Shown: positions 6,164 through 61,580 of the stretch, piece after piece
How the letters are laid out: the number at the start of each line of letters is the position of its first letter
Position numbering within the stretch: position 1 is the stretch's first letter
Assembly: GCA_026770705.1 (NCBI GenBank)
Contig: JANJGN010000040.1
Span: 8,618,001 to 8,682,000 of the forward strand
Source: Isurus oxyrinchus
Taxonomy: Eukaryota
Reading direction: 5' to 3'
Length of the DNA stretch: 64,000 bases
Notes under the pieces: model-generated
The model's database searches: none
What the model was told of the DNA's origin: nothing
The model's input: only the letters and a program-made list of their open reading frames with translations
Translations under genes and position numbers: made by a program

Positions 6164-6194
6164 TTAACAGAGAATGAGGAAATGCGCTCGCATT

Positions 6195-6400
6195 CACTTC
6201 TCTTATAGGATTGGGAGGAATGGTGCTGCGGGCATTGCTGATTGGTCACTTTGTGCTGCGTTTCATAATGTTGTTCATATCACCAATCAGATATTTACTG
6301 AACTCACCAATCCGGAGACTCCACTGAGTGAGGGCGGAAAATGACGGCGCCAAATTGCAACCGATTTTTTTTTCAAATTTTCAAAGCCCGCCAAATTTGA
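6195..6400 (-). promoter_or_regulatory. H2A promoter (TATA-like, CCAAT boxes, E2F-like TTTGGCGGG and CHR-like TTTGAA)
   Basis: Motifs read directly from the sequence. They are conserved in the inverted paralog at 22925-23130. Confidence 0.7.
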
Positions 6401-7214
6401 AAAAAAAACGGACAGAACATAGTGTTAATTGGAAATGTGTAATTCAGTATTTAGTATAGGAATGTTAGATTTACTTAATTTCACTCTCCCTTTCTCTGTT
6501 CTACAATTCATATCTATTTGTTTGATTTTCAGTCTGGGTTTATCTGAACTTGAAAACAAGCCGAAAACAACGGCTCGATATTTACGCATTTCGAAATCGA
6601 AAAGGTGGCCGATAGATTTATAAAACAAATACGTTTCATGAAGAAAGTGAACTCGGTCTGACGACAACGTTTTAAAATTACCCGTCCCTGATGGGACTAT
6701 TTCACATTTTATCCCAAGTTCCAGATTCGCTTTGTAATACGGGATCTATTCGGGGTTAATTTCCATCCTTAATGAAACTCTTTAAAGAGCCGGCAAAGTC
6801 TCATTTGCATCGTTCTACAAACGGACGGTATATTGTAGATATTCGTGAGAGTCAAAAGCGAACATGTCTGGTGTAAATTTGCCAGCGTTGAGACTGAAGT
6901 TTCCGACACAACCGGGGCTGATAATAATGGATCAGTTCATTTCCTGAGACCAAACTGGAAACTGACGCATTTGCGTTCTATTCTCTCCCTCTCCAAAACC
7001 AGGCAAAGGGGCTGGATATGAACGTGTCTGAGAACAAAGCGCAGAGGGTGAGCGGGCAGACATTCATTTATGGGGCATTATTATCAGGACCTTAGAATTG
7101 AGCGAGTGATAATGAGGGAAATAAGATGAAAATAACATAGCTCGGAATGTTCAAATTTAAAACATGACAAAGTAAAACTTGAGATGATATAGCTTTTTCA
7201 GAGAGATTGTGGGT

Positions 7215-7230
7215 GGCTTTTAAAAGAGCC
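7215..7230 (-). terminator. Histone 3' stem-loop (H2B) with a C-A mismatch
   Basis: The minus strand reads GGCTCTTTTAAAAGCC followed by ACCCA. Confidence 0.85.
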
Positions 7231-7271
7231 TTTGTGTTTTGAATGTTTTTCAGTCAGTTCGTTGTGGGGTT

Positions 7272-7646
7272 TTACTTGGAGCTGGTGTACTTGGTCACCG
7301 CCTTTGTCCCTTCCGACACGGCGTGCTTGGCCAGTTCCCCGGGCAGCAGCAGGCGCACGGCGGTCTGGATCTCCCGGGAGCTGATGGTGCTGCGCTTGTT
7401 GTAATGGGCCAGGCGGGAAGCCTCACCCGCGATGCGCTCGAAAATATCGCTCACGAACGAGTTCATGATGCTCATGGCCTTGGAGGAGATGCCGGTGTCG
7501 GGGTGAACCTGCTTCATCACTTTGTAGATGTAGATGGCGTAACTCTCCTTCCTCGACTTTCGTCGCTTTTTCCCGCCCTTTGCTAGCGGTTTCTTTAAGG
7601 CTTTCTTGCCTCCCTTCTTGGGAACTGGTTTCTTCTCATCAACCAT
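7272..7646 (-). CDS. H2B: Histone H2B
   Basis: [15 protein letters not shown]...[25 protein letters not shown]...AVTKYTSSK, 124 aa, with ATG at 7646. Confidence 0.96.
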
Positions 7647-7689
7647 CCTCACTTTCAGACACAGAAATAAATCAAACCTCTTCCGAGCG

Positions 7690-7860
7690 CCGATTAAATA
7701 GACATTGTCCCAGGTCTATGCTAATGAAGGATTGAAGCACCGTGATTCTGATTGGACATTTTTACATTTTATAACAGCCTATTCCTGTGTATTGTTCTGA
7801 TTGGTGTCTATAAATATCCAAAGAGATTTTGACTTCTCCACCAATCATTAGCCCATTTAC
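7690..7860 (-). promoter_or_regulatory. H2B promoter (TATTTAAT, octamer-like ATTAGCAT, CCAAT boxes)
   Basis: The octamer variant ATTAGCAT is at 7718-7725 next to a TATA-like box. The same layout occurs upstream of the H2B at 21668. Confidence 0.75.
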
Positions 7861-8499
7861 TGCAACTAGGCAACATATTCTACAAGGCTTCTCTCCGGCC
7901 AGAGTTTCTCAGTGTGTCAAGATATATTGGGAAGTGTTGCCTGGCTGTCAGTGCGAGGGACTGTCCGGGAATGCAGGATTCCTTCTGGTACTCTGACGTT
8001 CTGCTAATGTGTGCGACTTACACACTCGGATACTGTGTGAGGTAGGGGATAGAGTACAGGGGCTGTACTCTTGAAGCTGTGGTACAGTGTGTGTCTGATG
8101 TGTCATGTGCTTGTCAGTTTATGGAACTGGAAATTAAATTCGCTCATGAGTTTTTCAGTTTATGGAACTGGAAATGAGATTCACCCATGAGTTTCTCAGT
8201 TTCTGGCGCTGTAAATCAGTGTGGCATTGATTGTATATATTTCTGTCTGTGCTGCTCTCCGAGTGTGCAATTCGCATTCACTCCCAGAGCCCGGTGATGT
8301 GTTTGAGAATAATGGACATGCCAACATCTGATCCGCAATCAGAGTGTAGAATTCAGTCTGTATCTGTCAGTTTCTGGTATTGAATAGGAATGTGAGAGTC
8401 ATTGTCAACATCTGGGAATCTTTGAAACATATTCTGCATCTGTTTATCTTCACTGCTGTATGTGAGAGTGGAATTACTTTGGTTAATTCTGGTACTAAC

Positions 8500-17455: not shown

Positions 17456-19204
17456 AAGACGAACACATTTCTTTAGCAGTGACTGGTGTCGGTTGAATGG
17501 TTAACCCAATGGGAACAATGAATCAAAATCCAACCTGAACGAATGTCCCTGTTCCACCAGCAGTGCAGGGTTTCAGTTGTACCTGCATCTAACTGACAAT
17601 TGACAATGTTTGCATTGCTGCAGTTTCTTTGTGGCTGTTCATTATTATTATGTACTGAGAGCCTTTGTATTTTCTACCTCACCTGTATTTGTTGTAATCC
17701 AAGCACTCTTTTCTACAGGGAAATTACTGACGGGACCAGAATAACTGTGATGTTTCCTCCACCCGAGTGACAGTGATCAGTGCAGACAGCTCCTCACACA
17801 CAGTATGTACGTTCTCACTCAGAGTGCATCAGCTCCACAGTCTCAGACAGCAGAACTGGTTCCACAGGTCCATTTTCAAACCAACAATCAAACAGAGCAG
17901 GAGAAACAGATATTGTTTCCATGTCACCTAACTCAAAACCACTGACAGGTAGATACATAAATCACACTCCAAATTCTCACCCACTATCAGATTATCTATG
18001 TGTCAGTTCTACCTTGTGCAAGAGTTTGCTGTAATTAAATTAAATATCAAGAAAGAACTGAAAGATGGTATAACCTCAGCTGCAAACTCAGGTTCCAGTT
18101 TGAAACTCACCCAGAGTATTAACCTCATGGATACAATAACAATTTGATTAGTACACACTGAGATAGGGACCACATATCGTTCCAAAAACCTCAGAGTATC
18201 AGAATAGTAGGTACTGTATGCATTCTCACAGAGAAAACTGAGCACAACGGGCAAGTTTACAGTGATCCTCAACTACGAGTCCTAATTTTGAGAAATAATC
18301 TCCTGTGTGGGACCTTATCAAATTGCTGAGCAAAATTACACACACCCTCAGATTGCAAGGCACTGTGTGACCAAAACAAAAGTAGAACCTTAAATACAGA
18401 TTAAATGACAAAGAGAACAGGCAAAAGCACCTGATTGTAAGTTAATGCATGAATCCCAACATTGTACCCAGACTGCAGACTGAACAATGCATTATGTATC
18501 ACTCCCTAAATCTCAGAGCCTCTACAATCTGGATTAAGCTGATTTTACAATGTTATACATTTCCCCTATACAGACATTCAGAATTGTGTTGACAGAGATG
18601 GAATTCGAATCCAAAACTCTGACATAATATCTGATTAATACCCACAGCTATTAACTCCTGTTGAAACACATTTTATATTAAACATAAGTCAGGCTTACAC
18701 TCATAATATATAGAATAGAATCTCGCAATTGTTACAGCAGAGGGAGGCCATTCGGCCCATAGTATCTGTGTCAGCTCGCTGCAAGAGCAGCTGAGCTGCT
18801 CCCACTGACATATTCTTTCCTACAGGCCTGTTTAATTTTCCTTTTGTTCTTTTTACTATTTCTGTCTTGTCCAAAGAGCTCAAGTTATCTTTCCACATGG
18901 ACAAAATTGATTCTCTTTATTGACATTGATCATATCCATTCAACATCCATCCTTTCCCAAGATTAATAGTCCCAGCTATTCTAAGCCAGTGATGATTACT
19001 GATAAGGTTTCAACTGCAATTTAAATAACTCCAGTTGGAATTCATTTATCTGCCATCCTCTTCTCCATTACCCTTTACACTCTCTGATAGCAAGTTTAGT
19101 TGCCCTGATCTGTGTCTGACACCCATCCCAATTCTCCTCCTGAAGTATAACTGCTTTCATTGGATTTACCTAAGCAAATGAGCCAGGATCTCCCGTGGTT
19201 TAAG

Positions 19205-19490
19205 ATAAAAGCAAAATACTGCGGATGCTGGAAATCTAGAACAAAAACAAAAATACCTGGAAAAACTCAGCAGGTCTGATAACATCTGCAGAGAGGGATA
19301 CAGTTAACGTTTCGCATCCATATGGCCCTTCATCAGAACTAAGACATATAGAAATGAGATGAAATTTAAGCTGGTAGAAGGGAGTGGGACAGGAAGAGCT
19401 TAATGGGCCAGTGATAGGTGGAGGCCAAGAAGAGACTGCTACAATGTCATAGACAAAAGGACAAAGGGGTGTTGATGTGGTTTGTTTGGT
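19205..19490. mobile_element. Penelope pseudo-LTR fragment with degenerate hammerhead motif (minus, 19302-19340)
   Basis: The minus strand reads AGTT-CTGATGA-AGGGCCATATGGATGC-GAAA-CGTT-AACT, and stem II is mispaired. Confidence 0.75.
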
Positions 19491-20099: not shown

Positions 20100-21320
20100 G
20101 TTAAACATTGCATTTTGAACACTATTCCTGAGATAAATATTACATACAGGTACACAATCAATCCCAGAGTCACATGCAACATCAAAAACTGAGAACTCAA
20201 CAATAACCGTCTCTATTATATACAGCACCAGAGACTACTCAACAAATCTTGCACAAACCAGACACTGAGAAATATGGTAGGATGACCAATACATGCACAG
20301 TGATAGAGACTAATACAAAATGAATCTCAGTACACACACCATGCCAGAGACTATCAGTTACAGAATGAATCCCATATTACACAAAGCACACTGACTGATA
20401 GATAGAGGATGAATCTCAAATTGTCCCAGGGATGTAGATCCCGAATGAATCTGACCTTTGCATAGTACCACAGACTGAGAAACACAGAGGAATCGTAGAG
20501 CCAAAGACTGATAGAAACAAAACGAATCCTTCATTTCAGGCACTGTGAGCTACAAAATGGAACCAATGCTTACAGAGTGCACCAGAATCAAAATGGATTG
20601 CAAGCTCCCATGCAGTACCACTTATTAAAGGAGAATTAACCACATTCATAATCAGTACTACCCATTGAAATAGATTCTAAGTTTGACCGTACTTAGTGCT
20701 GTTTGTGACAGTAAGATTAATTATGTCAAACATTGCAATAGATTGAGCTACTGAGAATGAATCGCACACTGAATCAGTACCAGAGATTGACAGATACAGA
20801 CTGAATTCCACACTCCCATTCAGCAACGGATGTTGACAGATACAGAATTAGTCTCACATTCACACACAGTGTCAGGCACTGATAGTGAATAAGACGTTCA
20901 CAGACTCAGAAAAAGTACCACAGACTGACAGATATAGAATCAATAACACACTGACCTACAGTGCCAGAGACTGACAAATAAAGAATCTCATGAACATCCA
21001 GTTACAGAGCCTGGCAGGTACAGAATAAATCCAACACTTTCTGTGGCCGAGAGAAACACATGCTGATTTAATTCCGCACTGGCTTATGGTCCCAAGAAGG
21101 GTCTGAATTCACTTACATGCACCAATAACGGACAGATGCACAATGAGTTCCAGGATGCCAAGTGAATCCAACACTGAGACATGGTCCCATCAAGTCACAG
21201 ATACAGAATAAATCCAACACTCGCATACTGTACCACGGCCTTCCAAACAGCGAAGGAACCCCACACTCACACAATATTATCAGAGAGTGTGGAAATCCTA
21301 GAATCACACACATTACCAGA
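20100..21320 (-). repeat. Degenerate ~45 bp tandem repeat, reverse orientation
   Basis: GACAGATACAGA at 20789 and 20835 gives a period of 46, with many similar units around it. Confidence 0.7.
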
Positions 21321-21667
21321 GCCGCGCAGTTTTTGAAGTAACCCCAGATTCCCGGACAGTCCCTCGCACAGGCAACATTTCCCGGTGTATCTTTACACAC
21401 TGAGAAACTCCGGCTGAAGAAGTTCTTTGTAAAATGTATTTCCTGATTGTAGTAAGGAGGCTAATGATTGGTGGTGAAAGTTAAATATGATTGGTCGGTT
21501 CAACTATCCAATCAAAAAATTCACAAAATAAGTCATTTGGTTTTAGAAATGTCCAATCAGAATAATTGTTTCCCCATTCCTCATTAGCATATATCTGTCA
21601 GACTGTCTATTTAATGAGCGGACGGAAGGGGTTTGGTTTATTTCTGTGTCTGAAATTGAGATTGAAG

Positions 21668-22045
21668 ATGGTTGAAGAGAAGAAGAAACCAGTTGCTAAG
21701 AAAGGCGCCAAGAAAGCGGTGAGTAAACCGTCAGGAAAGGGCGGCAAGAAGCGGCGAAGGTCGAGGAAGGAGAGTTACGCCATCTACATCTACAAAGTGA
21801 TGAAGCAGGTTCACCCCGACACCGGCATCTCCTCCAAGGCCATGAGCATCATGAACTCGTTCGTGAGCGATATTTTCGAGCGCATCGCGGGTGAGGCTTC
21901 CCGCCTGGCCCATTACAACAAGCGCAGCACCATCAGCTCCCGGGAGATCCAGACCGCCGTGCGCCTGCTGCTGCCCGGGGAACTGGCCAAGCACGCCGTG
22001 TCGGAAGGGACAAAGGCGGTGACCAAGTACACCAGCTCCAAGTAA
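21668..22045 (+). CDS. H2B: Histone H2B (second copy)
   Basis: [16 protein letters not shown]...AVTKYTSSK, 125 aa, with ATG at 21668. An ATTAGCAT/TATTTAAT/CCAAT promoter lies upstream. Confidence 0.96.
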
Positions 22046-22082
22046 AACCCCCGAACTGACTGAAAAACATTCAAAACACAAC

Positions 22083-22098
22083 GGCTCTTTTAAGAGCC
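22083..22098 (+). terminator. Histone 3' stem-loop (H2B)
   Basis: GGCTCTTTTAAGAGCC followed by ACCCA. Confidence 0.95.
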
Positions 22099-22924
22099 AC
22101 CCACAGTCTCCCTGAAAACGCTATACCAACCACCTCAATTTTTAATTTGCTGTTTCTAATTTGAAAAATTTCGAACGATGTTTTTTTGAGTTGTTTCACA
22201 CATTCAGGCCAATGTAGACTCGGTTCAATTATTCGCTGTTGTTAATAAAGTACATAAATTAATGATTGTCCGCTGACCCTCTGCAATTTGTTCTCAGATG
22301 CGTTTATATTCGGCCCCTTTTCCTGGCTTTGGAGAGAGAGAGAGAATAGAACGCAAATGCGTCAGTTTCCAGTTCTGGTCAAGTTTGGTCTCAATAATCG
22401 ATCAGCTCATTCATTCAGCCCCGGCCAGCTCAACGCTGGCAAATTTACACCAGAAATGTCCACTTTTGACTCACGAGTATCTACTGTCCGTTTCTGCCGG
22501 CTGGTTAGAGGATTTCAATAAGGATCGAAATTAACCCCAAATGGATCCTGGATTCTAAAAGCGAATCTGGAACTTGGATAAAATGTGAAATAGTCCCATC
22601 AGGGACGGATATTTTAAAAACTTTGTCGTCAGACCGTGTTCACTATTAATGGGATTTTCTATATGAAATGTATTTTTTCTTTTCTAAATATACCGGCCGT
22701 CTTCGATGTCGAATAAAAAAAAAGTTTGTATTCCTCAAACTTGGTGCCGATATTTTCGGTTTGTTTTTAAGATGTTGATAAACCCAGGCTGAAAATCAGA
22801 AACAGACAAACACAGATCAACTGTAGACTAGGGAAACAGGAGAGATTAAGTGAATCTAACATTCGTATTCTAAATATTGAATTGCCTATTTCCAATTAGT
22901 ACGATATTATGTACTTTATTTTAC

Positions 22925-23201
22925 AAATTTGGCGGGCTTTAAAATTTGAAAAAAAATCGTTTGGAATCTGATCATTTGGCGCCGTCATTTTCCGCCCTCT
23001 ATCCGTGGAATCTCCGGATTGGTGAGTTCAGTAGATATCTGATTGGTCACTTTGTGTTGCGTCTCATAATGTTGTTCATGTTACCAATCAGCAATGCCCG
23101 CAGCACCATTCCTCCAGAAACTATCAGAGAAGCGAATGTGAGTGGATTCCCTCATTCCATTTGAAAGTGTTTGTGAGATTGTGGAAATGTTTGAAAGCAG
23201 G
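22925..23201 (+). pseudogene. Orphan H2A promoter, 5' UTR and first ~5 codons; rest of gene absent
   Basis: Inverted paralog of 6130-6400. It reads AAAGTGTTTGTGAGATTGTGGAAATGTTTGAAAGCAGG against AAAGTGTTTGTGAGATTGTGAAAATGTCTGGAAGAGG in the intact gene, and homology then stops. Confidence 0.85.
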
Positions 23202-23369
23202 ACTCCTCAGAGTGCAACGTGACGTATAGTGATAACTCCAATACCACTGCACTGTCTGACTGTCTGTAATGACCATATGGAAATGATTGTAATATTCATT
23301 GATTGTATTGAAGCACCTCGCGATCCATGTGTAAAAGTTGAATATGATTGCAGTTTTTATGATGATCAT

Positions 23370-32814: not shown

Positions 32815-32975
32815 CTCAAAACAGAAACAGAATTACCTGGAAAAACTCAGTAGGTCTGGCAGCATCGGCGGAGAAGAAAAGAGTTGATGTTTCGAGTCCT
32901 CATGACCCTTCTGTTTTTCCAGGTAATTCTATTTTTGTTTTGGATTTCCAGCATCCGCAGTTTTTTGTTTTTATC
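32815..32975. mobile_element. Penelope pseudo-LTR-derived inverted element
   Basis: Near-identical to 57735-57830, then folds back (TTTTTCCAGGTAATTC...CCAGCATCCGCAG). A direct repeat ATCACTGGCTCAA lies on both sides. Confidence 0.8.
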
Positions 32976-40620: not shown

Positions 40621-40765
40621 ACACCCCCACCCCACACTTCCCCATACACTGCGGTGAAGTGGGCTCTCTCTTCCATCCAAGCCCTGGACTGTCACCTTTA
40701 GAGCTGCATCCATGGAACAGTAGCCATGCAAAACTGCCTTTAACACCTTTTGCCCATAATACGGT

Positions 40766-40806
<41 letters not shown>

Positions 40807-42082
40807 TGATTATAAAAACAGCAAACTCTCCGAGATTAGATACAGAACATTTCTACTCCAGCATCCTGATACTGTCTGTGAGGAACTCCATGGAAGATAA
40901 CAGGTAGATAGGGTCTCAGTTTAACTTTTCATCCAAAACATGACACCTCCAACAGTGCATCACTCCCCCAGTGCTGGTCTGGATCTACTGGAGTGGGACA
41001 TCAACCCACAGTTTGTTCACTCAACTCCCAACTGAGGCAGAGTGACAATGGATAAATTAACCACTTCTCTTATCTACACAATCTGTGTTCTCACACCCCA
41101 ATCTGTGTGAAAGCTGCAGTATTAATCAAATTAAATAAACCTGTCTTAAACCCTCTTACTCTCACTCCTTGCCCTCATTATGAAAAGCTGACTCATGCCT
41201 GGGGATTGATCCCACAGACACCTCCAGTATCGCTCCAAATTCTTCATTTTTCACCTGTTAAACTGGACAGTGCATGTGGAGGAGAGGAACTGAGGGAACT
41301 GCTGACTCTGTCTTCACACACAATATGCACTCTCACACTGTAGCAGGTAGCAGCGATGGAGAGCAGCAACTGTGGTTCTTGGGTACTGAGGCCAATTACA
41401 GAGTCTCCCAACTGAGTAACTCATCCGGCTGTGATCCACCAACTCGGCACTGCCCTTTTCTTGCTGGTCTGTTTGGATCAGTCCTCAACACCCACCATCC
41501 CCTCAGCCGCTCAGATAGTGACTAATCATTCAGGGAATTTACCTGTGCAACTGGTTTACATTAAGTTCTTCAGTCTTTCATAAATAACAACTCAACCAAT
41601 TCTATTGTGATGTTCAAACAATTAAACTGTGAAATTCAAAGAGACTAATGTACTTTGAAAATAATACTCTCTGAACACTGGCTGTTAAGGGATCGGAGAA
41701 ATTTGCAGTTGTTTAGTATCAGGATGGAGAAACCCTTTCCCTGCAGTAGGACTTGGCTGAGCTAGGAGCAGAAATTGAATCAGCATGAAGAGAGTTTTCA
41801 TTATCTTCCATGGAGTTCCTCACAGACAGTATCAGGATGCTGGAGTAGAAATGTTCTGTATCTAATCTCGGAGAGTTTGCTGTTTTTATAATCACGCACA
41901 TACACCCACACACACACACACACACACACCCACCCACACCGTATTATGGGCAAAAGGTGTTAAAGGCAGTTTTGCATGGCTACTGTTCCATGGATGCAGC
42001 TCTAAAGGCGACAGTCCAGGGCTTGGATGGAAGAGAGAGCCCACTTCACCGCAGTGTATGGGGAAGTGTGGGGTGGGGGTGT
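40621..42082. repeat. Near-perfect inverted repeat (40621-40900 / 41801-42082) around a 900 bp spacer
   Basis: The arms are reverse complements, with differences mostly in the internal (TG)n tract. Confidence 0.95.
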
Positions 42083-43379: not shown

Positions 43380-44260
43380 TCTTTCACAGGACAATGTGAA
43401 CCATAACCACAGGGAGCAGAGCAGAATCAGAGGAGGACATGCACGCCTGCATCACCTGAGCCCTCTGGAGGAGGCAGTGATCTGTATCATGGAAGCAGCT
43501 GTTACAGATGTCGCTGAATTCAATGTGGCCGATACCATTGAGGATGACGGTATGTTCCTGCCTTCTGGCCCTTCTCACATCCCACCTCACCCTCCTCCTG
43601 CTATTTGACATGAGGCAAAAGCTGTAGATGGTGTGAACGTCAGCCGAGTGCTTTCCACCCATTGCACCTTCCCTCACCCCAACTCTTCCCTTCTGATTTT
43701 CTGCATTCAGCTGCCTCAGAACTGCCACCTGGCCAGTCAGTGCAGGCTCTTGAGAAGGGGGTGATCTGCTGCAGACCTCGGAGGAAGAAACACCATCACT
43801 TGGTCTGACATTTGCAGCCACCAGCTCAGATCCTGGCACAGCGCATTGCTTACAGGGTAATGTACAGTCAGGATCTGCATGTACTGAGTCACTGGGCATG
43901 GCTGGGCTGCAGCCAGTCCGAGGAATGGACAGTTCATGTTCCAGATCACCAGAGGCAGCCATCACTGACAAGTTCCGCTATGGTGGATTCAGATTAGGAG
44001 TTTGATGCAGTGGCCTACAGGAGAACATTGAGGAACATGTACACAGAGAGGATTGTTTTATTGTCTGACCTGCCAGACAGTCTCTTGTCAGTTTCAAGGA
44101 GCATTGTGGAGTCAGTTTCCAATGGAGGGAAAGCTTGGAACCCTCCTTTCCAGTGTGGAAGTGCTGGCCATCTCCATAACAGCACTTGTAGACCCAGCTG
44201 TGATATAGCATTGCGTGGTTGCTGTCTCAATGTTAACTACAGCCCAGGCAGAGTTCACCC
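43380..44260 (+). mobile_element. Harbinger-type Myb/SANT accessory gene remnant (spliced exons)
   Basis: Acceptor TCTTTCACAG, then exon DNVNHNHREQSRIRGGHARLHHLSPLEEAVICIM..., then donor GGTATG (~43549). This resembles the HNRRE..TGGG....LT..EE motif of Harbinger Myb proteins. The later exon has stops. Confidence 0.55.
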
Positions 44261-44508
44261 TACTGTTTCAGCGCTGCTGCAGGGAAGGCCACGGTTAATA
44301 ATTAGTTTGTAACTCTTTTGAGTACAAACCCGTTTCCTTCTGTTTCAGATGAAGTTACATTGTTTCATAGTTTGCCATTGTGAGATTTGAACTCTTGATA
44401 ATCTTTTAAATGAAAACCAAATCAACAAAATCGGGATAAATCAGGCACAGCCCCTAATTCAGGTCAGCTGTAAAACCAAAAACAAAGTTTAAAGGAAACC
44501 TACAAACT

Positions 44509-47500
44509 TTAAATCAAAATGTGATTAAAGGGGTCAACAAAACACCCCAGTTCCCGCGGTGCCCTCCGAGCACGGAAGGCCTTGAGAGTGCCAGCAGACA
44601 CCGCGTGCTCCCTCTCCAGGGACATCCGGCAGCAAACATAGCCGCGGAAGAGGGACAAACAATCGGGCGGGACTCCCCCGTCGATCGCCCGCTGCCTGGA
44701 CCTGTTAATGGCCAACTTGGCCAGGCCCAGGTGCAGGTTCACGAGGAGGTCCTCCTCCTTCCCGACCCCCTTCCGCACCGGGTGCCCATAGATCAGGAGC
44801 GTGGGGCTGAAGTGCAAACATCAATAAAAGGTTTTTCAAATAAGTAAAAAGGGAGTGCAGCCTACAACACCCTATGTATACATGGTCCACGGACTCCACA
44901 AGACCGCAAAAAGGGCACGTGTCCTGAGAGTCCATGAACCTCTGCATCCTTTTATTATAGGGGACTGCTGCATGCAACACCCTCCAACCCAGGTCCCCGA
45001 TAGAAAGGGGGAGGACACCTCCGTAGAGGGCCTCCCATCGGGGGCCTCCGCCGCCGGACGGCAACAAGGCACGCCAGGGCGTGTCCGGGTGGCGGACAAG
45101 GGCGAGAAAATGGAAGGTGTGCAGCAGCAGTCCGTACAAAAAGCCCCTCTTTGCTGTGCCAAAAGGCACGGAGGGCATGTCCCCGAGGCGGCTCATATTG
45201 CGGGGCACCAGCACCCGAGGGAGTGTTCGGGGCTTGGGGCCAATGTGGAATTCCGTCCGAACAGGGGAACGTTCAGATGGAAGACCACCGCGCACCTGGG
45301 CCACCTCAAGACCCAAAATAACGTCGGGTCCGAGCACGACCGTTCTCAGGTCTTGGATGGCATCGGCTGCGACCTGGACACTCACAGACGCGCGTCGCGC
45401 CAACTCCTGCGGGAGCATCCAGCCCAGTCCTCCGCCACCCAGCACGTCCCCGATCCTGGTCACCCCTGCGGCCACAGCCCTCCTCTCCACCAACCACTGA
45501 ACGGGACGGAGGGGCGGATTCCTGAGCAGCGGCTCTCTGACGATAGCCGCTACTCCTGACGGGGGAGAGCTGCGTCGCGAGGCGACCACTTTCCAGACTT
45601 TGATCAGGTCCTGGTAAAAGACGGGCAACGCCTGCAAGGAGCCACCGAGGCCCAGCTGTTCTATAAACAGGAGCTGCACGTCGTAATTCAGGCCGTGCAC
45701 CTGACAGAAGAAATACGTCGTCAGGGCACACCATCTAGGAGGATGGTGTAGAGGTATCGCTGCAGGGTCTGAAGGCGGAAAGTCGCCACCTGTGTGCGTA
45801 GGCACACTAGCGCCTGACTGCCCTCCCTAAGCGGGAGACTCAGAACCTCGGCAGCGACCCAGTGCAATCTTTTGTCCCAGAAGAAGTCGACTAACAATCT
45901 CTGGATTCTTGTGACCAAGTCCGGGGGAGGGGTCAAAGTGACCAGCCGATACCACAACATGGCGGCGATCAGCTGGTTTATGACCAGAACTCGACCTCGG
46001 TAAGATAGCACTCGGAGCAGTCCTGTCCAGCGCCGCAGGCGAGCTGTGACTTTGGTCTCCAGTTCCTGCCAGTTTGCCAGCCAGGATTCCTCAGCGAGGC
46101 AGAGATGGACCCCCAGGTAGAGGAGACTGGTCCTGCTCCAGGTGAAAGGCCTGAGCTCCTCGGGTAGGGGATCCATCTGCCACTGACCGACCAGGAGTCC
46201 AGAACATTTACCCCAGTTGATCCTGGCAGAAGAAGCGGCAGAGTAGACCTCCTGGCACTCGCGCATCCTCCGCAGGTCAGCCGGGTCACTAAACATAAGG
46301 AGCACGTCATAGGCGTAAGCCGAAAGGACCACCCCGATGCCCGGCCCGCGCAGGACCAATCCCGACAACCTCCTCCGCAAGAGGCGCAGGAAAGGCTCCA
46401 TGCAAATAGAATACAACTGGCCAGACAGGGAGCAGCCCTGACGTACCCCTCTCCCAAAGCGAAGGGGCGCCGTCAGGGACCCGTTAACCTTCACTATACA
46501 CTCCGTGGCGGTGTACAGAAGTCGGATCCGGGTGACAAAATGCGTCCCGAACCCAAACGCTCGCAGAGTTCCGAGTAAGTATCCGTGATCCACCCTGTCA
46601 AACACCTTCTCCTGATCGAGAGACAGGAAGGCGCTCGACAGACCAGCCCTCTGGGAATAGTGGATGATGTCCCGGACCAGATGGATGTTATCATAAATGG
46701 TTCGGTCTGGGACGGTGTAGGACTGGTCAGGGTGGATCATGTGGTCCAGCACGGTGCCGAGCCGGGAAGACATGGCTCGGGCGAAGATTTTGTAGTCCGT
46801 GCTGAGGAGGGAGACCGGGCGCCAGCTTTTAAGAAGGCGGAGATCCCCCTTCTTCAGCAGCAGGGCAATCACGGCCCTGCGCCACGAAAGGGGCATCTCC
46901 CCGGTAGCGATACTCTCCCCCAGGACCCCCGCGAAGTCGCTCCCCAAGACGTCCCAGAACGCCCTGAAGAACTCCACGGTCAGCCCGTCTAGTCCTGGGG
47001 ATTTGCCCCTAGAAAGACCGTCGAGTGCGCCGGTCAGCTCCCCCAGACTTATAGGGGAGTCAAGCCTTCCGGCGCACTCCGGCCGACCTGCGGCAGGTCC
47101 TCCCACAAAACTCTGCAAGCGTCCTCGCTGGACGGATCCGGAGAGAACAGGGCAGTGTAGTAATCTCGGGCGATGGCCCTGATGCCCTCCGGATCCGAGA
47201 CAAGGGATCCGTCGTCGGCCAGCAGCATAAAGAGCTGCTGACGGACCCCGTGCCTTTTTTTCAGCGAGTAGAAGAAGGGGGAGCCGCGGTCCATCTCCTT
47301 GAGGAACCGGATCTGCGACCTCACGAACGCGCCCCGAGACCCGACCAGTTGCAGGTCCCGCAGCACGCCCTTCTTCTCATTGTACACCGACCACAGGGCC
47401 GGGTCCGCGTTGGGCTGACGGAGACGTGCCTCCAGGTCGAGCACCACCTTCTCCAACTCCTCGACCCTGGATTTGGGTCTCTTTGTCGACCCCTTCGCGT

Positions 47501-48389
47501 ACTCTTGACAGAAAACTCGGATGTGAGTCTTGCCCACGTCCCACCATAGCCTCAAGGAGGGGAAGCCTCCCCTCTTCCTTCTCCAGCCGGCCCAGAAACG
47601 ACGGAACGAGTCCTGGAACCGCTGGTCTTCCAACAACAGGTTATTAAAATGCCAGTACGCGGACCCCGTCCGAGCGCAGAATGAAGTGAGCTCCGCCCAC
47701 ACCAGACGGTGGTCCGTGCACGGAACCTGCTGTATAGAAGCAGCCGGAATGCAGGACACGTACGCCTTTGAAACGTAAAGGCGGTCGAGTCTGGACGCTC
47801 CGACTCCAGGTGACACAAAGGTGAACACGCTGGAGTCAGGATGGAGATTTCGCCAGACGTCCACTAAGTCGAAGGACCTGACCAGGTCCCGCAACTTACT
47901 TACACCTCGCGTGCAGTGCGGGGTACCGTGACGGGCCCGGACCCCGAGGGTGCAATTGAAATCCCCCCCGAGGACGATGCACTCGCCAGCGCCGATGGAG
48001 CCGAGGTGAGTGGACACTTCTTCAAAGAAGCTGGCTTGCTGCTGCGTGCCCAGGGGAGCGTATACATTCACAAAGTGAAGCACCGCACCCCCCAGACGCA
48101 CAGTCAGGTGCAGCAACCGGCCTGGCACCAGCTCCTTGACCCCCAAGATCTCCGGCTGAAAATGCGGGGCCAACAAGATAGCCACCCCGCCAGAATTGGA
48201 GGCTAGGTGACTCATGTAGACCCCCCCTCGCCTCTCCAGGAGCCACGTGGCTTCGTCTCCCGGAACGGTATGGGTTTCTTGCAGGAGGCACAACGCATAC
48301 TTACCGTCCCTGAGGACCGAGAAGCTCTGGAACCTGCGCTGTGCGCCCCTGCTGCCGCAGATGTTGAGGCTGGCTATAGTCGTCTTCAT
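44509..48389 (-). pseudogene. Tx1 ORF2 (AP endonuclease - reverse transcriptase - CCHC finger), frameshifted
   Basis: LQETH, GDFN, RLDRLY and TDH (APE); KSPGLDG, WRPVSLL, GVRQGCSLS and YAYD in place of YADD (RT); CPFCGLVESVDHVYIGC. Frameshifts lie near 47085, 45740 and 44815. Confidence 0.92.
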
Positions 48390-48444
48390 TGTCAAAGGTA
48401 CATCAAACCTTCACCTTATTAATTAAAAGGAAGAAGAGGACTTT

Positions 48445-50585
48445 TTAGTCCTTCCTCTCCTTCAGGAGCCCAGCGAGAAACGTTTGGACCCTCCGCCGCG
48501 CGTTCCTATCCAACTCAGGAGACTTGAGAGCCTCGCGAGTGGACCAGAACACCAGCGGAAATGAATGCCACCGGTACAAGGCCAACTGAACCCTGTCTCG
48601 GCGACCGCGGTGCGCCGACAAAAAGTCCCGGAGTTCCCTTGGGGGGATGAGGGGGGAGTCAGTGGAGGGCACCAGGGGATCCACCGCCTCGCCTGAGAGC
48701 GACTCCGCGTAATCTCCAACGCTCCCCACCGACACCCCGTCCTCTTCCGGGTTGTCGCCTCCAGCTTCCGACCCCTCCCCCGCATTGAGTACGGGGGCTG
48801 ATTCGGAGCTGCCAGCTGGCTCTATCTCAGCCTCGATCCCTTCCCCAGGATCAAGGTCAGAGGAGTCCTCTCTGGTCTCCTCGAAACTTTTTAGGCCAGA
48901 GGGCAGCGGCAGTTCTGATGCCCGCTCTCCTCCCGGCACCGGGTCGTCCGGGGAGCTCAGGACAAGCTCCTGACCTAAACATAGGACGCCCGGTGTCAAG
49001 GTTTGGGAGGGAGCGGGAAGGCCCTCCTTTTCGCCACCACCCAATGACCCATTTACATTCTTTAAAATTTCAAAGCTGCAATCCCCCGACGAGCTAGAAA
49101 GTACCTCGGGGGTATTAAGTGCCCTGGAGTCGGACACCACCTCAAGGGAGGTGCCCTCAGTGACCCCCGAGGGGCCCTGTTCAGGGGACTGCAGCAGACT
49201 GTTAGGGGGAACAGTGGTAGGGGTAGGTGTTTCGGGTTCTCCCAGAGGGCAGAGCGAGGTTTTACTGGGTGGAGACGCCACCACCTCTTCATCAGGGGAA
49301 GGGACACACCCAACTTCTTCAGTTTGGGCATCACCCACTTCCTCCTCCGAAGCGTGACGTCTCTTCCGGGTCAGGCTGGGGGCTAGGGAGACCTCCATTT
49401 CCGAGGCCCCCTCCTCCTTGTCCAGCCCTCCCGGACACTCCACCCTCTGGGTTCTCAATCTTTCTTTCCCCGGCTCGGGGTCCCGCGTCTTTTCCCCGCC
49501 GGCCGCGGGAGTACGCGCAGGGACGACGCCGGGCCCAGCACTCGGCGCCTTAGCGCCCACGGACCCGGGAGCACACGCGGACACGACGCCGGGGGCCGGA
49601 TGATGTTTTCTCCCCCGAGCCGGTTTTTCCACGTGTTTGAGGGGTTTGGGACGTCTCAGGGACCGCCTCCAAATTTCGGGTCTTCCTCCGCGCCTTCTTA
49701 CGGCGCGGGGGCTCTCCCCCCCGCCTCACTGGCAACCGAGATGGCAGCTGCCGCCGGGGTCGCTTCCCCTTGCGGGGAGGGAGATGGAGTGGTGGCGGGT
49801 GCAGGAGGGGCGGTGCCAGCCGCGGCCGCTTGGGTGGGGCTCGTGGCCTTGGAGGTGGGGCAGTTCTTCCTTATGTGCCCCGCCTCCTTACAGGCATGGC
49901 AACGCACGCCCTCCGTGGTCCAGAAGACCCGATAGGCGGTCCCCTCAAAATTAACAAAGAAGGCCCCCTCCAGGCACTCCTCCCGGGCCAAGCAGATGAA
50001 AACCTGGCGCCGGAAGGAGTACACGTGGCGGAGGGTCGAGTCTCTGAGGCCGAGCGGGACTGGCGCAACCCCTGACCTGACCTCCCCCAGCTTATTAAGG
50101 TGGGGGAGGAGGAGCTCACATGGTATAAAGGGCGGGACGTTCGAAATAACAATCCTCTGGGCGGTGGCCTCAAGGGGGTCCACCGCCAGAAAAGTCCCGC
50201 CCACAGTGAGCCCCTTCTGCAGGGCGAGTTGCACCACCCGCTTGGACCTCAAGAAAAAGATGGCCCTCCCATACATTTTTGAGGCCGCGACAACGGCTGA
50301 GGGGCCGACAACCCCAGCCATAGCCTTCACGCAGGCCTCAATAGTCATCTCCGGGTGGGCGTAGCATTTAACCCCGAGGGCCCTGGTAAGGAGGCGGAAT
50401 GGTGACAGGGCAGCAGGAGCAGCTGGAGCTGCAGAAGCAACCACCCCCGCATAGGTTTTCTGTTTTTGAGGCCCTGCCACCGGTGACAAAACCACCTCCA
50501 CATTAGCCCTCGAGGGCCCGGCCACAGGCGATGGTGAATTGGCCTTAGGGCCAGAGCCACGCCCACCCTGGGAAGGATTGGCCAT
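48445..50585 (-). pseudogene. Tx1 ORF1 (gag-like, CCHC knuckle), frameshifted
   Basis: MANPSQ..., ISNVPPFIP, SFRRQVF and CHACKEAGHIRKNC. The reading frame shifts twice near 49710-49630 and ends at ...LLKERKD. Confidence 0.88.
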
Positions 50586-51059
50586 TTTGTTTTTTTTTGT
50601 TTTTTTATATATATATAAGGAGTATTCCTCCCTGGGGAGGAAAGGGGGTGGGGGAGAGAGGTAGAAACAACCTCCCCTCTTTTTGGCAGGAGAGGAGATG
50701 AGGGAGAGGAGTAAAAGACAGGGAGGCACAGGAGGGACAGAGGTAAATGTCCAGGTGGGTGTCCTCGATGGTGGATGGACAGTGGGTGGGGGCCTGATGT
50801 TCTTCAGGCAGGGGGAGGCGATGTCTTCACCAGCTACTGCTGGCCTTACCGGGAAGGGCTAGGTTGGGGGAGGGGTGGCAGAAAGATGGTTTCAGCACAC
50901 ACACACGCCCTCCCTCTCTTCCTTCCCCAACCCCTCTGGCAGTCTTCTTGCCTCCCCCTACAAAACACAGTCCTTAATTGCCCCCACCTTAAACAAAAAT
51001 ACACAGTTCAGACACCCACCTAGGATGTTGTTTTTCAACTCAGTCCTGGCCTCCTGGCC

Positions 51060-51330
51060 TTCCTGTCCTGTAGCAACAGCAGCAAAAGTTCTCTTCTCTC
51101 CCTCTCTCTCCTTTGGCACCACAAGGGCAAGGGAGCAGCAGCAGCAGCACTGGAGGAGCAGAAGCAGCAACAGCAGAAGCAACAACCCCAAAGCAGCAGC
51201 AGCAGCAGTTGTTCCTCTCTCCCTCTCCTCTCCCTTGGCTCAAACAGGGGCAAGGCAGCAGCAGAAGCAACAACCCCAAAGCAGCAGCAGAAACAGTTGA
51301 AACACTGAAGAGGAGCAGCAACACCAACAC
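51060..51330. repeat. CAG-rich duplicated minisatellite inside the Tx1 5' UTR
   Basis: Repeated GCAGCAGCAG / GCAACAACCCCAAAGCAGCAGCAG / CTCTCCCTCTC blocks. Confidence 0.75.
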
Positions 51331-53219
51331 CACACACCTTCTCTCCTCAGGATCAGGGAACAAACTGAATCCACAATTGCCTCAACGAGATCGTCAAGAC
51401 GATGAACTCTTGATACTCTTTCGAGTACAAACCCGTTTCCATCTGTTTCAGATGAAGTTACATTGTTTCACAGTTTGCCATTATGAGATTTGAACTCTTG
51501 ATACTCTTTTGAGTACAAACCCGTTTCCATCTGTTATCTGATGACGTTACATTGTTTCATAGTTTGCCATTGTGAGATTTGATCTCTTGATCTTAGGGTT
51601 ACAAACCCAGTACCATAACCACTTGGCTATTTAGGCCAAGCCCAAATTTAGTTTGTAGATTAGTTACATATAATGACTAAGTAATCAAGAGCTAACAATC
51701 AACTAACCTCACATGATATTCTGCTTAATTCTAATCAATGTTGGACACTCGTATCACATGACTGGCTCTTTATTCACAGTTGCATCCTTACTTAACAAGT
51801 GAGGTACATCACATGTCCCGAGGCTTGTTCAAAGCTACATTTCTGTGTTTTAATTGTGTGAAAATGTAGTGAAGACCTTCACGGTCGGGTGAGCTAAGGC
51901 CAGGAACCGTTAACTCCACAGCCATTAACACTTATCAGTTCTACTTAAGTTACAAGGCCCTAATATATGAGGAAAACAACTGTGAGGTTACAAACTTTCA
52001 ACTCTATGTCCTAAATTAATTTAGCCTTTTAACTTGTGGTGCCTTAAAGAGAAACAGTCACTTTCTTTCAGTTTATATCACCAGCCTATGTATTGCTTTG
52101 GTTCTGTAAGCTCTGTGTAACTCTTTTGACTCTTATTACTTATGAAATATATGAATTGAATGAATCTAGCAGTATTTTAAAAGTGTATCTGGTTACCTCA
52201 TTGTTAACGTATGGATTCTTTCTGTGCACTGATTTTATACATACTCTCTAGATTTTATGTATGAAGTAACTTTGTAATTTCTGTATTAATTTAAGACTCT
52301 TTGACACTTTGTATTCTTTCAATTAACTTTGTTCCATGCACTAGCAGCCATTATAAAAACATATTCTGGCAAGCAGTTTCCTTAACCAAAACATATTCTT
52401 AGGTGCCTGTCTTAATGAGAGTTCTACAGGATACCTATTCACCAATTAGTCATTTGCAACGAGCCCAGAAATATTAATCATTAAGACTTGACACCACATG
52501 CTCTCTTATTTCAAATAAGCAGGCAAAGAACACATCGAGGGCACCCTATTATCTCTGTCAAAAGCCATGAAATTTAATTAAATTTCAGAAAATGACAGGT
52601 AATAATTGACATCATAGTGGGACGGTCAGGAGATAACAGGAAGTAGATGACCATCACCCTTAAGAAATCAATCAGTAACTGATCAGACACTGTACGAACC
52701 AGAGTTCACACTGATCATGCACATGGGCTGTGTCTGAGAAAGAGTTAATAAGCACTAGCTTCCAGTTGCCAGGCATGCAACTCAAGGAAGACAAGCAAGA
52801 AGTTAAAACACAGCAAGAGACGTTGTTGCAGTCAACGGGAGGATTGTGGGCCAGTCTTCCAGACTGAACTGACTGCATAACACTGCCTTTGTTAAGTGCC
52901 ATATTTTTGTACTTACCATGACTTACTTAAATTCTGTGAAGCTTGTCACAGTATATCCGTATGCAGCAAGATTTGTGGGTATTTTGAACTCAGGGTCCAG
53001 AACTGACACTTGAACAGTGAAAACATACATTGCAGCTGAAGCTTAGATTCAGGTCGCAGGATCCATGTCTCTGCCATGCAGCTCAGATTGCTGGCATCAT
53101 GTGTGCAGTACTCAGTACTCAAAGAGACATGCAGGCTCACATGCTGGTCCTCCAACTGGTTACTGTGATCTCTGAGGAGCTGTGCATGCAAATGACAGTG
53201 ACTGCAAGCAGCATGTTTT

Positions 53220-57109: not shown

Positions 57110-57697
57110 ATGATTTCACAGAATCTCACAGTGCAGAAGAGGCCCTTCATCCAGTCGAGTCTGCACCGACACCTGAGAAACACCTGCCCTACCTACCTAA
57201 TCCCATTTACCAGCACCTGGCCCATAGCCTTGAATGTTATGATGTGCCAAGTGCTCATCCAGGTACTATTTAAGAGGCAACCCGCCTCCACCACCCTCCC
57301 AATCAGTGCATTCCAGACCATCACAGGCCTCTGGGTAAAAAAAGTTTATCCTCACATTGCCCCTAAACCTCCTGCCCCTCACCTTGAACTTGAGCCCCCT
57401 CGTGACTGATCCTTCAACAAAGGGGAGCAGCTGCTCCCTATCCACCCTATCCATGCTCCTCATAAACTTGCACACCTCGATCAGGACGTCCTTCAATCTT
57501 CTCTGCTCCAACGAAAACAACCCAAGTCTATCCAACCTCTCATAACTTAAATTTTTCATCCCAAGCAACATCCTGGTGAATCTCCTCTGCTCCCCCTCCA
57601 GTGCAATCACGTCCTTCCTATAATGTGGTGACCAGAACTGCACACAGTACTCCAGCTGTGGCCTCACCAAGGTTCTATGCAACTCCAAAATGACCTA
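57110..57697 (-). mobile_element. CR1 LINE 3' end
   Basis: MELHRTLVRPQLEYCVQFWSPHYRKDVIALEGEQRRFTRML. Confidence 0.92.
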
Positions 57698-60600
57698 AAA
57701 AGATAAAAACAAAAAACTGCGGATGCTGGAAATCCAAAACAAAAACAGAATTACCTGGAAAAACTCAGCAGGTCTGGCAGCATCAGCGGAGAAGAAAAGA
57801 GTTGATGTTTCGCGTCCTCATAACCCTTCAACAGAACTGGGTGAATCCAAGGAGAGGGGTGAAATATAAGCTGGTTTAAGGTGTGTTGGTGGGGGGGGGT
57901 GGGGGGGTGGGGGGCGGTGGTGATCCCATCACATTCTGAGATCCACACTCAGTGCCATGCGCCGCCATATGAACACACTCGACCACTCCCTCCAGCAGCA
58001 CCGCCGTACCCTTTTTCAAAGCTGCGTGTACCCCCAGTTTCATTTTATTCTTCGGCTCATCCGACGCCTCAACAAGAAACTTTTTCTCTTTCTCTCAAGT
58101 GCTAAGGAACGCAAGGTCCAACAACTCATGGACATCAACACCCATCTAGGAACCTCCACCCCTGCTTGTCTCTCCGTCCCCAACCCATCTTCCAATCCCA
58201 GCCCCAGCCGTGTATTCACTATACCCCTGAGCTTCCCCTCTCCGATGCTGAATGTTCAGTGCTCAGCAAAGGACTTAGTTTCATACCCTTACGTCCTCAT
58301 CTCAATGAATTTCGGGCTTGGCATGATGTTGAACTCTTCTTCCGCCGTCTTCGTCTCCGGGCTCACTTCTTTGGGAAGGTGTTCACTCCCCGTTCAACGG
58401 ATCCTTTTACCCACCTCCAATATTCTCCCTCCACCTGGACCCCTCCCTCTGGATTCTTACCTTCTCTTGATCTTTTCATTGAGAACTGTCGGCGCGACAT
58501 TGGTCATCTCAATTTCTCTGCTCCTCTCACCCATTCTAATCTGTCTCTGTTTGAACTTACTGCACTCAGTTCTGTCAGGCCCAACCCCAACATTGTCATC
58601 GAACCCGCTGACAAGGGTGATGCTGTTGTTGTCTGGCGCCCTGACCTCTACCTCGCGGAGGCTGAGCGTCAACTCACAGACACTTACTCCTACCTCTCCC
58701 TGGACCATGACCCCACCACTGAAAATCAATCCATTGTTTCCAGGACAGTCACTGACCTCATCTCCTCTGGAGATCTTCCTCCCACAGCTTCCAACCTGAT
58801 AGTCACCCAACCTCAGACGGCCCGCTTCTACCTCCTACCCAAAATCCACAAACAGAACTGTCCCGGTAGACCGATCATGTCAGATTGCTCCTGCCCCACA
58901 GAACTCATTTCTCGTTATCTTGACTCCCTTCTCTCTCTCCTTGTCCAGTCCCTTCCCACCTACATCCGTGATTCCTCTGACACCTTACGTCACATCAACA
59001 ATTTCCAGTTCCCCGGCCCCAACTGCCTCCTCTTCACCATGGACGTCCAATCCCTCTACACCTCCATCCGCCACCAGGATGGTCTGAGGGCCCTTAGCTT
59101 CTTCCTCGAACAGAACCCCGAACAATCCCCATCCACCACTACTCTCCTCCTGACACTGACCTTGTTCTCACGCTGAACAATTTCTCCTTCAACTCCTCTC
59201 ACTTCCTCCAAATAAAAGGTGTGTCTATGGGTACCCGCATGGGCCCCAGCTATGCCGGTCTCTTTATGGGGTATGTGGAACATTCTTTGTTCCAGTCCTA
59301 CTCCAGCCCCCTTCCACAACTCTTTCTCTGATACATCGATGATTACTTCGGTGCTGCTTCATGCTCTCATCGTTACTTGGAAAAATTTATTAATTTTGCT
59401 TCCAATCTCCACCCCTCCATCATTTTCATGTGGTCCATCTCTGACACTTCCCCTCCCTTCCTTGACATCTCTGTCTCAATCTCTGGTGATAGACTGTCCA
59501 CCAATATCCATTACAAGCCTACCGACTCCCACAGCTACCTCGACTACAGCTCCTCACACCCCGCTTCCTGTAAGGACTCCATCCCATTCTCTCAGTTCCT
59601 TCGCCTCCGTCGCACCTGTTCTGATGATGCTACTTTCCAAAACAGTTCCTCTGTCATGTCCTCCTTCTTCCTTAACCGAGGTTTTCCACCCACGGTCGTT
59701 GACAGGGCCCTCAACCGTGTCCGACCCATCTCCTGCGCATCCACCCTCACGCCTTCTCCTCCCTCCCAGAAACATGATAGGGTCCCCCTTGTCTTCACTT
59801 ATCACCCCACCAGCCTCCGCATTCAAAGGATCATCCTCCGCCATTTCCGCCAACTCCAGCATGATGCCACCACCAAACACATCTTCCCTTCCCCACCCCC
59901 CGGCAGCATTCCGTAGGGATTGTTCCCTCCGGGACACCCTGGTCCACTCCTCCATCACCCCCTACACCTCAACCCCCTCCTATGGCACCTCCCCATGCCC
60001 ACGCAAAAGATGTAACACCTGCCCCTTCACTTCCTCTCTCCTCGCCGTCCAAGGGCCCAAACGGTCCTTTCAAGTGAAGCAGCATTTCACTTGCATTTCC
60101 CCCAACTTAGTCTACTGCATTCGTTGCTCCCAATGTGGTCTCCTCTACATTGGAGAGACCAAACGTAAACTGGGCGACCACTTTGCAGTACACCTGCGGT
60201 CTGTCCGCAAGAATGACCCAAACCTCCCTGTCGCTTGCCATTTTAACACTCCACCCTGCTCTCTTGCCCACATGTCTGTCCTTGGCTTGCTGCATTGTTC
60301 CAGTGAAGCCCAACGCAAACTGGAGGAACAGCACCTCATCTTCTGACTAGGCACTTTATAGCCTTCTGGACTGAATATAGAATTCAATAACTTTAGATCT
60401 TGAACTCCCTCCTCCAACCACACCCGCTTTCCATTTCCTCACCCTTCCTTTTGTTTTTTCCAATAATTCATATAGATTTTTCTTTTCCCACCTATTTCTA
60501 TTATTTTTAAATCTTTTCTGCCCTGCTAGTCTTTCCACCCCACCCCCAAAAGAGCTGTACCTTGAGTGCCCTACCATCCATTCTTAATTAGCACATTTGT

Positions 60601-60816
60601 TTAGATAATATCACTACCTTCAACACCTCTGTGTTCTTTTGTTCTTTTGTCTGTGACATCTTTTGATTATCTGCTCCTATCACTACTTGCCTGTCCCTAC
60701 AACCACACCACTCCCCTCCACTTCTCTCCCCCCACACAAACACCTTAAACCAGCTTATATTTCACCCCTCTCCTTGGATTCACCCAGTTCTGTTGAAGGG
60801 TCATGAGGACTCGAAA
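57698..60816 (+). mobile_element. Penelope-like element (RT + GIY-YIG), frameshifted, with inverted pseudo-LTR
   Basis: PADKGDAVV, FYLLPKIHK..PGRPI, MDVQSLYTSI, MGTRMGPSYA, YIDD and NLVYCIRCSQCGLLYIGETKR. 57808-57886 is the reverse complement of ~60738-60816. Confidence 0.93.
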
Positions 60817-61580
60817 TAAGTATAATCGCACTTTTTAAAATGAAGCCTTCCCATGGTTTGAAAAATGAAATCCCCCCCACCTACTCTTTTTAAAATGGAG
60901 TCTCCCTGCTCATTTTTCCATGAACTCTCCCTGCTCTTCGGTCTCTTATTTCAATGGAATCTCTCCACACTTTTTAAAATGAAGTTTCCCCGCTCTGTGC
61001 ACTCTTTTTAAATGAAGTCTCCTTGTTTTTTTTTTTAAAAAAAGTCTCCTTGCTCTTTTTTTAGATTAACTCTCTCCACTCTAGGTGGGGGGGATTTCAT
61101 TTTTCAAACCATGGGAAGGCTTCATTTTAAAAAGTGCGATTATACTTAATGAAAAGAGCAGGTGGGCTTAATTATAAAAGGAACGGGGAGACATAGTTAT
61201 AACAAGAGCAGGGATACTTCATTTAAAAAAGAGTTCTGAGAGTCAGAAGACGAATTTCTTTTAAAGCGCAATGAGTGGGGAGACTTCATTTTAAAAAGCC
61301 CGGGGAAACTTTGCTCTTTTTCTGATGAAGTATCCCCGCTCTCCATGGTCTTTTTAAAATGAAGTCTCCCCGCTTTCTGTGCTCTTTTTAAAGGAACTCT
61401 CCTTGCTTTTAAAAAAATTGAAGTATTCTCGCTCTATTTTAGATGAACTCTCTCCACTCTACGTGCTTTTTTTTCGATGAAGTCTCCTCGCTCTCTGTTC
61501 TTTTTAAAATGAAGTGTCACCGCTTTCTGCTCTTTTTAAAATGAAGTCTCGCCGCTGTCCATGCTCTTTTTTTAAATGAA
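60817..61580. repeat. ~20-33 bp minisatellite (GCTCTTTTTAAAATGAAGTCTCCCCGCT) with an internal inversion
   Basis: Units are forward at 60830-61080 and 61310-61580 and reversed at 61082-61310. A perfect 67 bp inverted repeat lies at 60817-60883 / 61082-61148. Confidence 0.85.

Follow-up and report, generated by a model that had tools for sequence, protein, structure and literature searches.

A full-length Tx1 LINE nested at a tandem-unit junction of a tRNA-derived SINE-like element in Isurus oxyrinchus

A 64,000-nt stretch of Isurus oxyrinchus DNA (contig JANJGN010000040.1; this whole analysed stretch is hereafter called the window) contains a full-length, inactivated long interspersed nuclear element (LINE) of the Tx1L lineage, which lies in the same orientation (minus strand) inside a tRNA-derived short interspersed nuclear element (SINE). 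The site entered by the LINE is the junction between tandem tail units of the SINE, not a plain B-box. The anatomy of this insertion, its 13-bp target duplication, the resemblance between the ends of the two elements and the abundance of both families are directly established. As an explanation we favour, at a probability just short of even, the ordinary target-primed insertion of a now dead copy of an abundant LINE at a junction made attractive by its likeness to the LINE's own end.

Anatomy of the nested insertion

The nested structure consists of the following features, in the order of the element strand:

51648..51657, minus strand: 5' copy of the host SINE's 10-bp flanking repeat, probably a target duplication of the SINE
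51565..51636, minus strand: tRNA-like head (RF00005) with a UGU (Thr) anticodon, overlapping unit 1
51503..51591, minus strand: SINE unit 1, 89 bp, T-arm/B-box and tail
51415..51502, minus strand: SINE unit 2, 88 bp
51403..51415, minus strand: 5' copy of the 13-bp target duplication, ending in the B-box
44401..51402, minus strand: full-length, inactivated Tx1L-lineage LINE, 7,002 bp, without poly(A)
50586..51402, minus strand: LINE 5' untranslated region (UTR), 817 nt, with a 123-bp internal repeat (51072-51296)
48445..50585, minus strand: open reading frame 1 (ORF1), with one frameshift near 49700 and a zinc knuckle; 48-50% identity to four turtle proteins
44512..48389, minus strand: ORF2 (APE-RT-zf-RVT) in four frames; catalytic motifs of the apurinic/apyrimidinic-type endonuclease (APE) intact; reverse transcriptase (RT) motif YAYD near 46317
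44401..44419, minus strand: terminal 19 nt of the LINE, 12-13/19 identical to the SINE tail end
44388..44400, minus strand: 3' copy of the 13-bp target duplication
44308..44399, minus strand: SINE unit 3, with the true 3' end of the family at 44308
44302..44311, minus strand: 10-bp flanking repeat, 3' copy, the first 4 nt of which overlap the SINE end

Two exact copies of the 13-mer TATCAAGAGTTCA (element strand; TGAACTCTTGATA on the plus strand), at 44388-44400 and 51403-51415, enclose 7,002 bp, and the adjoining position on both sides is mismatched. A 13-mer of such composition is expected about 0.003 times per 64-kb window, and a third copy, at 51491-51503, is part of the host SINE's own tandem junction. 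Removal of the insert and one duplication leaves a host element of 324 bp. The initial annotation had described a full-length, 7,002-bp Tx1-type element with an exact 13-bp duplication that runs into the B-box. Both copies and their spacing were recovered and the duplication does terminate within the B-box (GTTCA/AATC, the slash marking its end), the target being redefined as the tandem junction. The duplication comprises 13 exact bp, or 8-13 bp if TATCA is assigned to the element end. A duplication of 19-20 bp with mismatches was considered and set aside in favour of end homology, as the extra letters fall in the covered 3' end of the LINE family. At the opposite junction, the LINE 5' end and the last base of the duplication form, by eye, a perfect 14-nt palindrome-like hairpin (51390-51403, ATCGTC-TT-GACGAT), which could be a fold-back addition or element sequence.

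ORF2 of the LINE contains an N-terminal APE (PF03372), an RT (PF00078) and a C-terminal zf-RVT domain (PF13966), and the CCHC knuckle of ORF1 (PF00098) scores 19.6 bits, slightly below the cut-off of 20.8. Xenopus Tx1L ORF2 aligns along the LINE ORF2 in four frames (44, 61, 36 and 44% identity), which implies three frameshifts in addition to the one in ORF1. Furthermore, the RT motif reads YAYD instead of YADD. Judged by these four frameshifts and the altered RT motif, the element is full-length, as annotated, yet not intact and represents a dead copy. In an RT tree of 27 rows (the window LINE and 26 named proteins out of 167 fetched; midpoint root, no non-Tx1 outgroup), the LINE pairs with a stingray protein (99/95) within a nine-row 100/100 clade containing Tx1L, turtle and sturgeon sequences. 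It falls outside the clade of sampled teleost proteins, the family names of which were not established. Together with the APE/RT/zinc layout, this placement bears out the original assignment to the Tx1 clade. The nearest proteins are from stingray (71%) and horn shark (66%). No snRNA (small nuclear RNA) head was found on the LINE in Rfam at E<=1, and self-comparison and tblastn revealed no second copy in the window. The LINE proteins had no matches in metagenome or GTDB contigs, and viral contigs gave one irrelevant match of 24%.

The host likewise proved to be a tRNA-Thr-like, SINE-like element, as the annotation had proposed; it has a UGU head, dispersed copies and a fixed 3' end. Its head is tRNA-like with internal promoter boxes, scoring 24.3 bits against RF00005, short of the gathering score of 29 (E=0.006 over 321 nt), and was not called as a tRNA by ARAGORN. 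The three tail units are 88-92 bp long, each starts at ATCAAGAG right before the B-box, and they differ by 4-7 changes per pairwise comparison. The monomer of about 150 nt has a Thr-like head and little space for a body. The host's own 10-bp flanking repeat is present at both ends as originally claimed, with the refinement that 4 of its 10 letters are also the 3' end of the SINE family. No second SINE copy was found in the window, and viral, metagenome and GTDB contigs yielded nothing for the SINE patterns. On the same strand, some 460 bp upstream of the SINE, positions 52116-52129 repeat 14 nt of the SINE 3' end exactly (window-wide E=0.011), either as a remnant or by chance.

Resemblance of the LINE and SINE ends

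With the shared 13-mer as anchor, alignment of the terminal 19 nt of the LINE gives 13/19 identities with the SINE tail end in its unit-1 form, 12/19 in its unit-2 form (the one actually hit) and only 4/19 with the monomer head. The target is therefore best described as a tandem junction that resembles the LINE's own end. For the unit-1 form, the junction is the sole position with at least 13 matches among 6,984 in the element. In the background, matches of at least 13/19 occur at 14 of 87,964 window positions (shuffle P=1.3e-4, to be relaxed about tenfold because the length of 19 nt was picked from six lengths tried). If TATCA is counted with the LINE, the terminal 23-mers of LINE and SINE agree at 16/23 positions. 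In addition, 10-11 of 12 positions agree between the junction ((A/G)AAAGAGTATCA) and the LINE end extended by the first five letters of the duplication (AAAAGATTATCA). The location at a unit boundary, combined with an end match of 12-13/19, upholds the proposition that the insertion position is non-random.

In the favoured account, the APE would have nicked the strand opposite GAG/TATCA (slash at the nick), target-primed reverse transcription would have started from this nick, and a second cut 13 bp further on would have split the B-box. Priming or site choice may have been aided by a short motif of about 10 bp or by RNA-DNA pairing. The endonuclease of Tx1L recognizes a short motif of about 10 bp (PMC1919474), and target choice through RNA-DNA pairing has been described for L1 (PMC4014453). 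More speculatively, the two ends could be alike because the SINE uses the enzymes of this LINE. Under the favoured account, the SINE junction would be one preferred site among many, with most LINE copies residing elsewhere.

The same orientation of both elements, and an end homology located exactly at the point of exchange, would also be expected if an RT copying tandem-tailed SINE RNA had jumped to LINE RNA at the shared end and then back, in which case the 13-mer would be re-copied RNA and not a target duplication. Jumps of this kind have been invoked for SINEU, a SINE mobilized by Tx1 elements (PMC4494074). Such a chimera is very unlikely here, as the RT would have to jump twice, with a 7-kb copy made in between, and come back to within 13 nt, whereas simple nicking already yields a 13-bp duplication.

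Equally relevant to the cut position is an off-target insertion by an enzyme with Keno-like (U2 snRNA) or Tx1L-like specificity, which we regard as extremely improbable. The word TTATCA is present in U2, and U2 has a short word in common with the SINE head. However, the 3' flank of Keno and Utopia begins with TCTGTTC, seven letters ahead of the shared word (PMC4640811). A Keno/U2 site for the window copy is ruled out by its cut position, since its 3' flank is not the U2 TCTGTTC. Furthermore, no Keno protein was identified for the RT tree. The nick of Tx1L is followed by AGTT (PMC1950540), and CTCT follows here. The APE of Tx1L has an 11-residue RDGH hairpin loop, which has been tied to its nicking preference (PMC1950540). 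The corresponding loop of the window LINE has 8 residues (FVSPGVGA) and is Gly-rich and uncharged, so that the specificity of Tx1L cannot be assumed for this element.

Other copies in assembled contigs and the question of targeting

Parts of the window were present in 20 of 24 sequencing runs, 19 of which came from two organisms and one of which was labelled as a coral metagenome (shares of the stretch up to 0.67 and 0.53). Contig coverage of positions 44150-44900 was taken from two runs of assembled contigs (X1 and X5, the latter from organism B), about half of each. Raw-read runs of organisms C and D yielded 0 reads and are no test, and the coral metagenome RNA run (share 0.27) was not used. 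The statements on individual contigs draw on 16 of 32,670 pieces, 12 of 773 loose-end rows and 12 of 66 inserted-letter joints.

In the two runs, the SINE unit reached a summed depth of about 6.1e6 and 1.8e6, and the 3' part of the LINE a median of 0.80e6 and 0.71e6; the depth of the unique flank in X5 was 21-26. These depths are not copy numbers, and both families are clearly very abundant in two organisms. In both runs, more than 90% of the depth disagrees with the window at 9 or more of 500 LINE positions (40 of 85 rows listed); the window LINE copy is thus diverged by roughly 2% or more, similar to the SINE units. At the SINE 3' end (44308), loose ends with diverse flanks were present in 61 and 34 contigs, and the agreement behind this end was 0.36 and 0.37, as expected of dispersed copies. 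At 44399 the SINE runs on into its head in 30 and 61 contigs, and the tandem junction of the window is present in both organisms (12 and 10 contigs). Because of these diverse flanks, the continuation into the head and the shared junction, the host is considered a dispersed SINE-like family with a tandem-tailed form. A unique flank at 44228-44305 is covered by one organism B contig with two differences, and the orthologous locus thus appears to exist there.

Two of the joints listed connect a SINE end to inner LINE sequence (44464 and 44589), so nesting occurs in both directions. With two families of such very high summed depth in two organisms, and a window chosen for this very oddity, the structure could reflect the chance nesting of two abundant, contemporaneous retroelements, the position of which would be meaningless. 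We consider this unlikely, as two coincidences are required, an insertion at a unit boundary and an end match of 12-13/19.

Among the pieces listed, a single contig crosses the LINE 3' end (record 9 of X5, organism B, 262 nt). Its alignment spans 44528 to 44396 and so enters the duplication by five letters; the next 129 letters depart from the SINE, and the contig represents an approximately 89% relative. Unrelated flanks of other copies, which the annotation had named as counter-evidence to targeting, were thus glimpsed once, the flank of this contig being non-SINE after the five shared letters. A subfamily-specific class of loose ends at 44414 (14 contigs) also lacks read-through into the SINE. 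These two observations, the dispersed state of the SINE, the joints on inner LINE sequence and an APE loop unlike that of Tx1L favour ordinary insertion at one preferred site among many.

A stronger proposition is that the whole family is targeted, the LINE endonuclease recognizing this SINE position as Tx1L recognizes Tx1D, with a large share of copies residing there and the same nick seeding the SINE-on-SINE tandems. The placement of the window LINE in one 100/100 clade with the site-specific Tx1L of Xenopus is compatible with this idea, as are the frequent use of other transposons as targets by Tx1 families (PMC4494074) and an insertion exactly at a unit boundary where 324 bp offer two internal boundaries. 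In addition, 6 of the 11 X1 inserted-letter joints listed begin at 44398-44400 with varied upstream ends (5 of the 6 with at most 4 letters between), and the junction-bin depth is compatible with read-through. However, the clustering of joints is biased because the SINE head lies outside the mapped stretch, and the joints listed are 12 of 66. Neither record 9 nor the 44414 class reads on into the SINE, and a monomer lacks the upstream context (4/19). Moreover, tandem SINE units in snakes also begin before box B, and the available part of their description mentions no link to Tx1 (PMC10702118). A Tx1 family has been termed target-specific if more than 20% of its copies are flanked by the same target (PMC4494074). 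We regard targeting at the family level as doubtful, though a serious candidate. Of the annotated suggestion that the family may target a SINE, the Tx1 identity, the SINE-like host and the non-random position stand, and family-wide targeting is not established, the direct evidence being scant and split.

A bolder scheme, which appears rather unlikely, combines mobilization of the tRNA-derived SINE by the LINE, by way of a 3' end of about 20 nt common to both, with an endonuclease preference for the B-box-proximal site of the SINE. SINE tails and LINEs would both land at this site, each insertion would rebuild the target at its 3' junction, and the outcome would be arrays of tails with occasional LINEs.

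Several points weigh against the favoured account. It draws on one locus and one visible contig, itself an approximately 89% relative, and Tx1L, the closest characterized relative, is strictly site-specific. No large class of diverse loose ends was seen at the LINE 3' end among the rows listed, where only about 8 and 13 such contigs would be expected in the two runs, a class size close to the limit of the listing. A fit of the junction-bin depth in both runs (a=0.12, b=1.28) suits many read-through junctions; this fit is model-dependent, and the depth pattern can nearly be met without read-through. Beyond the last approximately 20 nt, the SINE tail and the LINE 3' UTR are unrelated (local alignment P=0.5), which is meagre for the tail that a SINE shares with a partner LINE.

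At present, the window provides one well-formed nested insertion that carries a testable clue. If family-wide targeting were true, SINEs would be added to the list of Tx1 targets, and the two elements would form a compact LINE-SINE pair, the LINE as helper disabling the promoter box of the SINE that travels with it. The divergent APE loop would then lend itself to the study of target change in Tx1 endonucleases. Should the end homology alone be upheld, it would still point to mobilization of a tRNA-headed SINE by a Tx1 element, SINEU being the only Tx1-moved SINE in the literature covered.

Genomic surroundings and comparison with known systems

The nested insertion is surrounded by a histone gene cluster and one tRNA-Gly gene. 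The cluster (3515-36390) contains ORFs for H4, H2A and H2B and five matches to the histone stem-loop, four of them above the gathering score, as well as an inverted 1.9-kb duplicate (6128-8016 versus 21304-23202, 77%). The tRNA-Gly(TCC) gene is located at 3515-3588. Closer to the insertion, an inverted pair of about 282 bp (40621-40900 and 41801-42082; 97.9% identical, 900 bp apart, with GT/CA runs inside) is possibly a foldback element or an inversion. On the other side, positions 57690-60880 contain a broken Penelope-like element, with a GIY-YIG-like motif recognized by eye in the ORF at 59252-60346 (no Pfam match). The upstream repeat of this element (57700-57881) recurs at 19202-19381, 32817-32911 and 2948-3029. 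Furthermore, a perfect 67-bp inverted repeat (60817-60883 and 61082-61148) lies within an array of 25-34-bp repeats containing TTTTAAAA (60817-61580).

No SINE-targeting Tx1 element was found in the titles and abstract openings of the literature searched, with most subscription papers, Repbase and Dfam outside this scope. Transposon-targeting Tx1 families are already known. Dewa in tRNA arrays and Mutsu in 5S are Tx1-clade elements that, like the window LINE, are associated with multicopy small-RNA or repeat targets. The same applies to Keno in U2 and to Kibi and Koshi in microsatellites (PMC4494074), the cut site of Keno having no match to the insertion site described here.

Among tRNA-derived SINEs of cartilaginous fish, the CmiSINEs have tRNA-Ala heads, a CORE body and an L2 tail, SacSINE1 contains a Deu domain (PMC5499810), and HE1 is paired with HER1 (PMC3747384). 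The window SINE is set apart from these by their descriptions only. In snake sSat3, as in the window SINE, the unit repeated inside the SINE starts within the 3' portion of the tRNA head and contains box B (PMC10702118). Unlike sSat3, the unit described here reaches the SINE 3' end, is present in three copies only and has a LINE in one junction.

Crocodilian Tx1 families prefer Mariner, Harbinger and LTR (long terminal repeat) elements or microsatellites, and probably mobilize SINEU (PMC4494074). In the Tx1-Mar/SINEU system, a Tx1 family and a SINE are inferred to share machinery and insertion sites, and SINE tandems formed by sequential insertion have been invoked (PMC4494074). That system targets a third element (Mariner-N4), and its SINE has a U1/U2 head, whereas in the window a dispersed SINE with a tRNA-like head is itself the candidate target.

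The closest parallel is Tx1L (ORF2, YTX2_XENLA), which has the same two-ORF organization and APE-RT-zinc layout, shares 61% identity with the window ORF2 over 440 aa around the RT and 44% over the first 450 aa, groups in the same 100/100 clade and also resides in another mobile element. The window LINE differs from Tx1L in its shorter, uncharged APE hairpin loop (8 versus 11 residues) and in the letters that follow the nick, and its host is a tRNA-derived SINE, whereas that of Tx1L is the DNA transposon Tx1D.

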